A DNA stretch of 37,584 bases from IMG/VR virus record IMGVR_UViG_2537562191_000055. One strand, given 5' to 3'. Source of the stretch: a virus. Its lineage: Duplodnaviria; Heunggongvirae; Uroviricota; Caudoviricetes. Below are positions 21,001 to 24,000 of the stretch, piece after piece (positions within the stretch are counted from its first letter, which is position 1; the number at the start of each line of letters is the position of its first letter). The position numbers were made by a program.

Positions 21001-24000
21001 CCGTTGCAGTTAATTGCGGCATAGTGCCTCCTCTGACATTACTGTTCAGCGCCGTGGCCATCACACTGATGGCATCCGACGCATTGATTAATTCATCCGC
21101 CAGCCCGGCCTCAATGCCGGACTGACCTTCAAAAACGGCGGCCTCTGTTCCCGTGACAGCATCAACAGACAGACCGGTATACATCGCTACTTTTTCAGCA
21201 AACATCCGGCGCGCCGCATCAATGCGCTGTTGCATGTCCTGGCGAACCTCTGCCGGCAACGCTTCAAACTGATTGCCATCCACCTTGTGCGCCCCTGAGT
21301 AAATCAGCGTGATATCAACACCGGCCTGCGCCAGATGACCGGCATAGCTGACATGGCTCATCATCACGCCAATGGAGCCGATACGGGATGTCTGGGTAAC
21401 CAGCCGTCGGGAGCAGGCCGACGCCAGCAGCATGGCTGCAGAGCAGGCCGTGTCATTGCACAGTGCCCAGACCGGCTTCTGCTGACGGAGGCGGTAAATC
21501 ATGTCAGCGCAGTCAAACGCGCCGGCGGCCTGCCCGCCCGGACTGTCAATGTCCAGCAGTACGCCCCGCACCTGGCTATCCGCCATTGCCTGCTGAAGAC
21601 AGGCGACAATGCCGTCATAGCCTGTCATTCCGGAAAATGGCCGCATACCCCCCAGCCGGTGCACCAGCGTGCCGGTCACCGGCAGTACAGCAATACCGTT
21701 CACCACCCGGTAAACACGGGCCGGTCGTTTACCTCCGGCCATGTACTCGTCCGTTTCAGCCAGCATTCCGGGAGCATCAAACTGTACCTGCTGTTGTGGT
21801 ACCGAAAGACTTGATGCCCCCATCTCGCGCCCGAGCGCGCAAAAGAAAACCCGCGCATAGGCGGGCTCCAGAAGCAGCGGTTCATTGAATGCTGCGGCAA
21901 TAATGTGTGAAAGATTACGTCTCACGTGGTGTTGTCTCCTCTTCCGGCCTGCGACTCTCCGCTATCTGCTGCTCATACGCCTGCGCTATCCACACCGGAC
22001 GTGAGAGTCCGGCTTTTTGTCGCTCAGCAGATTCCCTGACCTGCTGGCGGAAAATGTCCTGATAATCCTCGCCCATCAGCGCCAGCTCTTTCTCATACGT
22101 GCTCAGTCCGGCCTCAATGCGCATCACTGATTCCTGGACTTCCTTGAGCCCGTCAATGGCCATTCTTCCGGCTCCAATCCACTCAGCCCGTGACCAGGCT
22201 GATCGCGCCTGATAAAAATCAAAACGCGCCCGTGGCGGACGAATAATCCCCCGAAGAAGTGCCTCTTCCAGCCAGCAGGAAAACATCTGCGTGGCCAGCC
22301 GGGACGCAATAAATTTTCGTCGTCCCATAAAATAGCGCCACGACTCATTGGCGGAGGCGCGGGCACTTGAATAACTGACCTTCGAGTAATCCCGGGACAA
22401 CTGTTCGTAGGAAACGCCAAGACCGGCGGCGATATACCGCAGCAGCGCCTGTTCAAGCGCCGAAAATCCATTGTCTGAATCCTGCGCAGTCTGCAGTTTC
22501 AGATCATTGAACCGCCCCGGGTTTCCTGGAGAGTGTTTTATCTGTGAACTCAGGCTGCCAGATCATCGTTTCCGATGGAAGCATAATAAGCTTTTTCTGC
22601 TTCTGCCGGAGGAGTATGGCCCAGCCTTCCCAGCAATCGTCGATTGTTATACCAGTCCACCCACGTTAGTGTGGCCAGTTCCACTTCTGCACGGTTTTTC
22701 CAGCTCTTACGGTGTATTACCTCCGCTTTGTAAAGACCATTGATGCTCTCAGCCATCGCGTTGTCATACGAGTCGCCTGTACTCCCTGTTGATGCCAGTA
22801 ATCCGGCTTCTTTTAGTCGCTCCGTATAGGCCAGTGACACATACTGAGAGCCTTTATCGCTGTGATGGATGGTGCCAGACGGACGACGGGCCCACAACGC
22901 CTGCTCCAGCGCATCCAGCACGAATGTCGTTTCCATAGACGATGAGACCCGCCACCCCACGATGTATCCGGCAAACACATCAATGATAAACGCCACATAG
23001 ACGAAGCCCTGCCATGTGCTGACGTAAGTAAAATCAGCCACCCACAGCTGGTCAGGTCGTTCTGCCACGAACTGACGGTTTACGCGGTCGCCTGCGGCAA
23101 CGGCTTTCCGGCTGATGGTCGTACGGACCTTTTTACCCCGGAGAACACCGGCAAGTCCCATAACCGCCATGAGACGTGCCACTGTACATCTGGCCACCCT
23201 GATTCCTTCCCGTAACAACTGACGCCAGACTTTACGCACACCGTACACCTGATGATTTTCATCGTATACGCGCTGTATCTCTCTCTTCAGCCAGTCGTCG
23301 TGCTGCGCACGGGCACTGCGTTTATCCGGATGATGTCGCTGTTGCTGACAATGGTAATACGTTGACGGGGCAATATGCAGTTCGCTGCATACCGGTCCGA
23401 CCCCGTACTGCTCACGCAGCTTATCCAGCAGTGGCATCATTTTTTCCAGAGGCGGTCGAACTCCGCCTTCGCAAAATAAGCGGAAGCCTGGCGAAGGATA
23501 TCGTTACTGCGGCGCAGTTCACGGTTTTCACGTTCCAGCTCTTTCAGACGCTGACGTTCAGCGCTGGTGAGCCCACCATCACCGCTCCCGGTATCCCTCT
23601 CATGCAGGCGTCCCCAGACACGCAGAGTCTCCGGTGTACAGCCAATCTTTGGGCAATGGAACAAATTGCCGCCCATTGTGAGTCATATTCGCCCTGACTT
23701 TCCAGAACCATATGAATCGCCCGTTGACGGACTTCGGGGGAAAAACGAGTATTTTTAGTCATCCTGTTTACCTCTTTCTCAGGGAGTTTAGTCTCCAGGA
23801 TTTCCGGGGCGGTTCACTTGCGTTTACATGGGATAGTTACAGGAGCAGATCGTGACTGGAAAAGAAATCATCCTGGAATATCTGAAAACTCATGAACAAT
23901 TCTCCCCACATGAATTAGCACTGATCACCGGAATACCAAATAACAGAATCGCTCAAGCAGCAAGGCATATGGTGAAACAAGGACATTTGAGTGTTGTTGA

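Follow-up and report, generated by a model that had tools for sequence, protein, structure and literature searches.

Inversion between copies of an insertion sequence and gene conversion among such copies are general phenomena. That IS629 inserts, is excised, causes adjacent deletions and contributes to the decay of prophages is established for enterohaemorrhagic Escherichia coli (PMC9943667). Genomic deletions and IS excision associated with IS629 and the IS-excision enhancer (IEE) were reportedly described by Ooka et al. 2009. Deletions and excision of this kind are also attributed to Kusumoto et al. 2011 in the summary given in PMC9943667, a source which furthermore reports IEE to be present in O111:H8 and deletions linked to IEE beside IS629 to reach sizes of more than 40 kb.

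The DNA considered here, a window of 37,584 nucleotides, comprises most of a defective lambda-like prophage at att-lambda (ybhC/ybhB) of the Escherichia coli O111:H8/H- lineage. It resembles the other defective lambdoid prophages of enterohaemorrhagic E. coli (EHEC) that carry type III effectors (cif, nleH, espJ) at att-lambda in its lambda core att sites and its Int of lambda type, in the lambda-like genes for head and tail and in the position of the effector genes, which lie at the right end, but the O111 version is without immunity, replication and recombination functions, xis, terminase and cos, and its nin-Q-lysis region is inverted. The window holds three IS629/IS1203 copies (Table 1), of which the second, copy 2, had in a preliminary description been taken for a hybrid marking a deletion between two different IS629 elements. 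In our reading copy 2 is an IS629 element situated at a rearrangement scar, made up of an inversion and losses, while its mosaic sequence is rather probably a separate matter of conversion from a plasmid remnant.

Table 1. Positions of the features discussed, numbered from the first nucleotide of the window
Feature	Position	Strand	Remarks
IS629 copy 1	1..387	-	canonical; cut by the window start; simple insertion with ATC/ATC duplication
Portal gene remnant	21915..22507	-	lambda-type; last 593 of 1593 nt, nt 1-1000 missing
IS629/IS1203 copy 2	22508..23816	-	1309 bp; both terminal repeats intact; flanks CAT / CTT
orfB of copy 2	22550..23440	-	296 aa; DDE integrase core; intact, identical to copy 3
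ALIL pseudoknot	23366..23482	-	programmed-frameshift stimulator of IS3-family elements; RF01497, 121.5 bits
Probable gene-conversion tract	23524..23724 (minimum); 23465-23783 (maximum)		12 substitutions and a 1-nt deletion; maximum bounded by plasmid-only sites
orfA of copy 2	23544..23762	-	1-nt deletion giving a 72-aa frameshifted product, against 108 aa for OrfA
Inverted block	23817..35086	+	replication-gene tail, ren, nin, lpxR, Q, nanS-like esterase, holin, lysozyme (split by copy 3), Rz nt 1-14
DnaC-type ('ATP-binding protein') replication gene tail	23817..23855	+	last 39 nt; right-hand breakpoint
Ren-position winged-helix gene	23852..24142	+	WP_000145948.1; first intact gene beyond the junction
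IS629 copy 3	33415..34724	+	canonical; 1310 bp; simple insertion in the lysozyme gene with GAC/GAC duplication
IS-free illegitimate joint	35087..35104		Rz nt 14 and int nt 10 separated by an 18-nt filler, TGGATGTGGTGCTGGACG
Lambda-type integrase	35090..36166	+	native first three codons replaced; xis absent
attL core	36240..36254	-	GCTTTTTTATACTAA (lambda att, 15 bp); between lambda-type int and ybhC

Copy 2 and its flanks

Copy 2 has the make-up of the IS629/IS1203 elements (IS3 family) of EHEC, being one nucleotide shorter than their 1310 bp and carrying orfA and orfB together with the pseudoknot for -1 frameshifting. Its imperfect terminal inverted repeats, which start with TGAACCGCCCCGG, are equal to those of copies 1 and 3 at both ends, and the orfB product has the rve and HTH_21 domains (Pfam) of a DDE transposase, the pseudoknot being likewise intact. 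The orfA of copy 2 is by contrast annotated as 'frameshifted' by NCBI, and its product has no Pfam match, whereas the OrfA of copy 3 has the helix-turn-helix domain HTH_Tnp_1. Judged from these reading frames, copy 2 is predicted to be unable to make OrfA and the OrfAB transposase by itself and to be non-autonomous.

The element also differs from other members in its flanks. Simple insertions of IS629/IS1203 are accompanied by 3-bp duplications, as seen at copies 1 and 3, but the left flank of copy 2 ends in CAGATCAT (ATCAT next to the IS) and the right flank begins with CTTGCGTTT (CTTGCG), and realignment of the three IS629 copies gave neither a 3-bp nor a 4-bp target duplication at copy 2, just as the preliminary description had it. 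The missing duplication indicates a rearrangement after insertion rather than that copy 2 falls outside IS629.

That copy 2 directly abuts an in-frame portal gene truncated at its 5' end was likewise seen correctly. The remnant covers positions 288-354 of the 354 positions in the Pfam Phage_portal_2 profile, and the intact portal gene of strain E2865 is 100% identical to it. Its frame runs 46 nt into the IS as far as an ATG at 22553, and because of this extension the NCBI pipeline (PGAP) annotates a 212-aa 'portal protein'. On the other side the replication-gene tail is collinear with PE15 locus L008 12001-12039, and the order of this tail and the Ren-position gene follows that of the prophage in strain PE15.

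Since repeated IS elements carry a generic risk of collapsed reads, the joining of these unrelated flanks might be taken for an assembly artefact, a hazard already raised in the preliminary description; that risk is the only point in its favour. The 5.3-kb junction region is however the same to the base in at least 30 O111 genomes that were finished independently, including that of the Sanger-finished strain 11128, and the derived junction variants of other strains are internally consistent. Assembly collapse is excluded by the number of finished genomes with the same junction, and an artefact of any kind deserves practically no credence.

Inverted block, lost DNA and second joint

The identity of the prophage as a lambda-type element at att-lambda is evident from its two 15-bp cores, the second of which adjoins ybhB, some 2.2 kb beyond the left end of the window, from the integrase next to attL and from the ybhC-ybhB site. 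The att core and int also fix its orientation, and it is then seen that the minus-strand genes for head and tail run in the normal lambda direction, while the genes of the inverted block on the plus strand face int, that is, the wrong way. No tRNAs were found in the window.

An orthologous prophage with the canonical gene order is found in strain E2865, where it occupies the same ybhC site, shares Q, lpxR, nleH, cif and the tail genes with the O111 prophage and carries three IS629 copies. Its order is int, xis, early-left, cII, O, P, ren, nin, Q, holin, lysozyme, Rz, Rha, terminase, W, portal, head, tail, effectors. Compared with this prophage, the window lacks about 11 kb of early DNA, extending from xis to the replication gene, and 5,564 bp of late DNA, extending from Rz nt 15 up to portal nt 1000; the O111 prophage has thereby lost the portal 5' end, the head-tail joining gene, terminase, the cos region and Rz beyond nt 14. 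The comparison upholds the earlier claim that the portal 5' end, terminase, cos and part of the early region had been removed.

At its far end the inverted block meets int in a joint that contains no IS. A source for the 18-nt filler of this joint was sought and none was found, the matches being chance 10-11-mers only, but the filler supplies a new in-frame ATG at 35090, which is why a 358-aa Int reading frame persists. Given the inverted block and this second joint, a single deletion between directly repeated IS copies cannot explain the structure, and to judge from the arrangement of the genes at least one inversion and one deletion are required to found it. The view of copy 2 as marking a junction where DNA was lost is thus right as regards the rearrangement and the loss, and wrong as regards a simple deletion, since block 23817-35086 is inverted and a second joint is present at 35087-35104. 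Furthermore, as xis, terminase, cos, a complete portal gene and the replication and immunity regions are all lacking, the O111 effector prophage (cif, nleH, espJ) is probably locked in place, being predicted to be neither inducible nor packageable.

The variant tract of copy 2

Pairwise alignment of the three IS629 copies showed copy 2 to be identical to copy 3 over IS positions 1-1016, as numbered from the orfB-side end, in agreement with what had been said of its orfB half. Exactly 12 substitutions and one 1-nt deletion, which turns GGGG into GGG at 23651-23653, separate the two copies within IS positions 1017-1218, and beyond IS position 1218 the last ~90 nt of copy 2 are canonical again up to the tip. 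The preliminary description accordingly gave the number of differences, about a dozen with a 1-nt deletion, correctly, but it assigned them to the orfA end, whereas the variant stretch is internal.

The same variants are found on the O111 plasmid of ~78 kb (e.g. pE2863-3), which harbours a truncated IS629-like remnant adjoining cytochrome b562 and katP genes. This remnant has all 13 of the variants of copy 2, the 1-nt deletion included, and copy 2 is without a private difference. About 40 further non-canonical positions of the remnant lie left of the tract (IS 489-957) and two more, IS 1278 and 1297, to its right; copy 2 is canonical at all of these, so that there are two switch points, in IS 958-1017 and in IS 1218-1278, and the tract is 202-320 bp long. 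Each O111 chromosome and each plasmid has a single occurrence of a 60-mer specific to the tract, except that there are two in the chromosome of strain 1056-1. No full-length IS of the variant type was found in 5,426 complete E. coli genomes by means of a 317-nt query, the tract-specific 60-mer and the 840-nt form of strain UTME-6, and the truncated plasmid remnant is the only other carrier of the variant type in these genomes.

It is furthermore apparent that the tract varies in length while the flanks of the junction stay constant. Strain 9662 has the same junction, with CAT to the left of the IS and CTT to the right, but of the variant sites just the five rightmost; it is without the deletion, and its transposase frame is intact. 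UTME-6, again with this junction, has 37 plasmid-type sites extending from IS position 491 to 1218, and its tract starts within about 10 nt of the start of the homology of the plasmid remnant, which points to the remnant as donor; a relative of the remnant, absent from the genomes sampled, could however have been the donor in its place. The tract variants may have come about by extension or by erosion. In strains 1056-1 and 1074-2 it is copy 1 that has changed: it keeps its ATC/ATC duplication, and the 22 kb between copies 1 and 2 are retained, but its sequence is now identical to that of copy 2. Copy 1 of 1056-1 shows conversion from IS to IS without loss of the intervening 22 kb, and conversion among IS629 copies is active in the O111 lineage.

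Two other strains are nearly identical to the window but differ from it in their IS629 content: strain 11128 (NC_013364.1) is without copy 1, and in strain E2863, which matches both window ends at 100%, an additional IS629 follows window position 4808.

The preliminary description had regarded copy 2 as the footprint of recombination between two different IS629 copies. Taken as a crossover between directly oriented copies with loss of the intervening DNA, this would have left a mosaic with a canonical orfB part and a variant orfA part. The absence of a target duplication, the missing DNA and the mosaic nature of the IS all accord with such an event, but a single crossover would give one switch point followed by the second parent up to the end of the IS and would call for a full-length parent of the variant type. 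Instead there are two switch points with a canonical tip (IS 1278 and 1297), the tract with its inactivating 1-nt deletion is that of a truncated and immobile plasmid remnant, the 5,426 genomes hold no full-length parent, and tract length differs between strains at one and the same junction. Moreover, the inverted nin-Q-lysis region and the joint at 35087-35104 would be left unexplained. Recombination of direct repeats is on these grounds very improbable as the origin of the junction, and the notion of a crossover footprint has to be given up.

The order canonical-variant-canonical, with its two switch points, is the signature of gene conversion and not of one crossover. Indeed an internal stretch that matches an ectopic donor and has acceptor-type sequence on both sides is what is seen in copy 2, and the variation of the tract in 9662, UTME-6 and copy 1 of 1056-1 is as expected of conversion. 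The mosaic is most likely a gene-conversion tract copied from the truncated plasmid remnant in an event separate from the junction, either later than it or independent of it, and this tract would have brought in the frameshift that inactivates the orfA of copy 2. The tract is separable from the junction and conversion is active in the lineage; the mosaic tells nothing of the origin of the junction. As in other cases of ectopic gene conversion among IS copies, there is a short internal tract without crossover, several tract lengths occur at one acceptor, and the tract has been passed on, here to copy 1 of 1056-1, but unlike in those cases the tract comes from a dead, truncated remnant on a plasmid and the acceptor has been diversified and inactivated and not homogenised.

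A further-reaching reading, to which we give about even chances, is that the immobile remnant on the O111 virulence plasmid has served as a recurrent conversion donor to one chromosomal IS629, frameshifting a copy that still drives deletions and inversions by means of transposase supplied in trans. There would then have been at least two, and possibly three, conversion events of different length. If this is true, dead IS remnants could 'poison' live copies across replicons.

Derived rearrangements and the founding junction

Several sister strains carry later rearrangements of the same locus. Copy 3 is inverted in orientation with respect to copy 2, and in strains RM9131 and RM9975 the flanks have been swapped between these two copies and the interval has been re-inverted, a flank exchange like that known from homologous recombination between inverted IS copies. 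RM9131 also has a head-tail deletion, and simple recombination between IS copies was rejected as its explanation, the lysozyme flank now adjoining the opposite (orfB-side) IS end; it is a deletion between the 13-nt identical tips of the inverted repeats or an end-flush event.

In strains SF4-1 and 8B copy 2 and the portal flank are whole, and 1,217 bp and 1,478 bp, respectively, have been lost from the first base outside the orfA-side end of copy 2 onwards. These derived deletions have the form of one-ended deletions adjacent to an IS, and the two strains together show that end-flush deletions recur at the orfA-side end of copy 2. As the copy concerned has a frameshifted orfA, the transposase would have been supplied in trans; copy 2 keeps intact ends and presumably still rearranges through the transposase of other IS629 copies. 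The founding junction is compatible with a one-ended IS-adjacent deletion but not demonstrable as one.

Our tentative preference, at slightly less than even confidence, is that the founding junction arose through inversion between two IS629 copies. Of two copies in inverted orientation, one would have resided in the portal gene and the other at the replication gene's 3' end, and their recombination would have inverted the DNA between them, copy 2 being one of the two recombinants. A single later deletion of about 17-18 kb would then have removed the reciprocal recombinant together with DNA on either side of it and left the IS-free joint between the truncated Rz and int genes, and IS excision with flanking deletion promoted by IEE would be a plausible cause of this step. 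Recombination of two IS copies is, by way of inversion, a possible route to the junction, though one of which no evidence is visible in the sequence.

The junction may alternatively owe its existence to a single IS629. The first step would in that case have been an illegitimate inversion with its end points at int codon 3/4 and Rz codon 5, and one IS629 would subsequently have entered the portal or the replication gene and given rise, by transposase or IEE, to at least one one-sided end-flush deletion, whereby ~17 kb and the original duplication would have been lost with no second IS involved. SF4-1 and 8B, where a lone IS end has evidently produced end-flush deletions, make this a serious rival, and adjacent deletions associated with IS629/IEE are documented (PMC9943667). 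However, the first step is a repeat-independent inversion of more than 20 kb, an event of a type that is rare in bacteria, whereas inversion from IS to IS is seen directly at this locus, and no intermediate of the single-IS course is present among the 5,426 complete genomes. We regard it as unlikely, albeit deserving of consideration.

The two courses require an equal number of steps, and the elementary steps of both occur in sister strains, the inversion in RM9131/RM9975 and the end-flush deletion in SF4-1/8B. Inversion between two IS copies is preferred because RM9131 exemplifies it here and the E2865 ortholog, with its three, shows several IS629 copies to be normal in this prophage, and because IS excision with large flanking deletions is documented behaviour of IS629/IEE, IEE having been reported in O111:H8. 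Intermediates and the reciprocal junction were sought in the 5,426 complete genomes with two synthetic IS-insertion queries, one with the IS in an intact portal gene with CAT duplicated and one with the IS in the replication gene with CTT duplicated. The first query design was confounded by neighbouring IS ends, and the redesigned query matched the portal gene only or the replication gene only, so that neither an intermediate nor the reciprocal junction was found in these genomes. With no such junction surviving, we infer the order and type of the founding events.

The favoured inversion between IS copies, followed by deletion, compares with described systems as follows. Like the deletions ascribed to IS629/IEE, those of SF4-1 and 8B have an IS629 end as their exact starting point and have taken away flanking DNA of the prophage, an IS-free joint with filler or microhomology is found, and the O111:H8 lineage is reported to have IEE; unlike them, the founding event here includes an inversion, and the part played by IEE is presumed. 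As regards homologous recombination between inverted IS copies, the partner IS of the founding junction is gone and the mechanism is deduced.

Taken by itself the locus is a case of ordinary IS629-driven prophage decay, a new instance within a published lineage, and none of the processes is new. It is only mildly unusual, in that the conversion donor is a dead plasmid remnant and in that one chromosomal copy has several tract lengths across strains. One locus nevertheless displays the principal forms of change driven by IS629 (insertion, conversion, inversion and end-flush deletion) across the sequenced O111 strains, which makes it a convenient natural test bed. The main value of the finding lies in the annotation of EHEC prophages and the reconstruction of their history, where it counsels caution: the mosaic of an IS that lies at a junction is not necessarily a record of the crossover by which the junction was formed, and gene conversion from plasmid to chromosome can mimic a crossover mosaic.

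IS629 tract conversion and its candidate donor

In strains 1056-1 and 1074-2, copy 1 of the IS629 equals copy 2 at every base, including the 13-site tract (12 substitutions and a 1-nt deletion relative to canonical IS629), and it is still flanked by the ATC/ATC duplication. Here conversion took in either the whole element or a long tract; the two copies are 22 kb apart, and nothing was deleted. Copy 2 of UTME-6 has a patchy plasmid-type tract of 37 sites, a form that among 5,426 complete E. coli genomes was found in this strain alone, and copy 2 of 9662 has a 5-site tract with the reading frame intact. 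Sequence comparison points to the truncated IS629-like remnant of plasmid pE2863-3 as a candidate donor of the converted tract; its annotation reads partial transposase, frameshifted, and several indels are private to it, among them 1-nt and 6-nt deletions.

Features of the window and of the comparison loci (L numbers, each from the strain or plasmid named)
Feature	Position	Strand	Context
Truncated IS629-like remnant, pE2863-3	L003 3497-4317		adjoins cytochrome b562 gene and IS-truncated katP
Copy 1, 1056-1	L009 1509-2817		at window copy 1 position
Copy 2, UTME-6	L012 2509-3817		
Copy 2, 9662	L011 2509-3818		
Rearranged locus, RM9131	L004 19009-20317; L004 29888-31197		window equivalents 4809-22507 and 23817-33414
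IS629-type copies, E2865	L014 8835-10048; L014 16207-17420; L013 35645-36858		
Copy 1	window 1-387		
cif	window 2565-3395		
Minor tail protein L gene	window 11968-12665		
Annotated 'phage portal protein'	window 21915-22553		
Antiterminator fragment and lpxR-like gene	window 26923-28097		
lpxR-like lipid A deacylase gene	window 27138-28097	minus	between antiterminator fragment and Q
18-nt filler	window 35087-35104		Rz'/'int joint
Predicted integrase ORF	window 35090-36166		

Rearrangement and variation among related strains

Locus comparison revealed that RM9131 and RM9975 have the segment from copy 2 to copy 3 flipped back, with its flanks swapped, and that these strains are also without one IS and 17.7 kb, reaching from the portal remnant to the tail-fibre N-terminus. 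The orfB-side repeat of their tail-fibre IS629 directly adjoins the lysozyme N-terminal flank, an arrangement that does not fit ordinary recombination inside the IS. It fits an end-flush event, or else a deletion between the IR tips, which are identical over 13 nt (TGAACCGCCCCGG). Reference strain 11128 is missing copy 1, and its cif is frameshifted, whereas the window has a single ORF of 276 aa; E2863 carries an extra IS629 in the tail-fibre gene, after window position 4808.

Gene remnants and the orthologous E2865 prophage

The filler at the IS-free Rz'/'int joint provides an in-frame ATG, and the predicted integrase ORF is kept, with MWCWT replacing the native MGR; xis is absent. PGAP annotates the portal remnant as a 212-aa 'phage portal protein', the first 15 codons of which lie within the IS629 terminal repeat region, and this call is an annotation artefact from a read-through frame. 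The gene of minor tail protein L is frameshifted according to the 11128 annotation and the window ORFs are split likewise, which is additional decay of the tail module.

In the nin/Q region a 72-bp antiterminator gene fragment is followed by the opposed lpxR-like gene and then by a complete Q; the lpxR-like gene is a moron-like insertion and is common to the window and the orthologous prophage of strain E2865. The latter harbors three IS629-type copies together with IS600 and IS66-family elements, and since one of these IS629 copies lies between a sieB fragment and cII, the expected place of N, cI and cro, it seems that the E2865 prophage lost its immunity region independently, in association with an IS.
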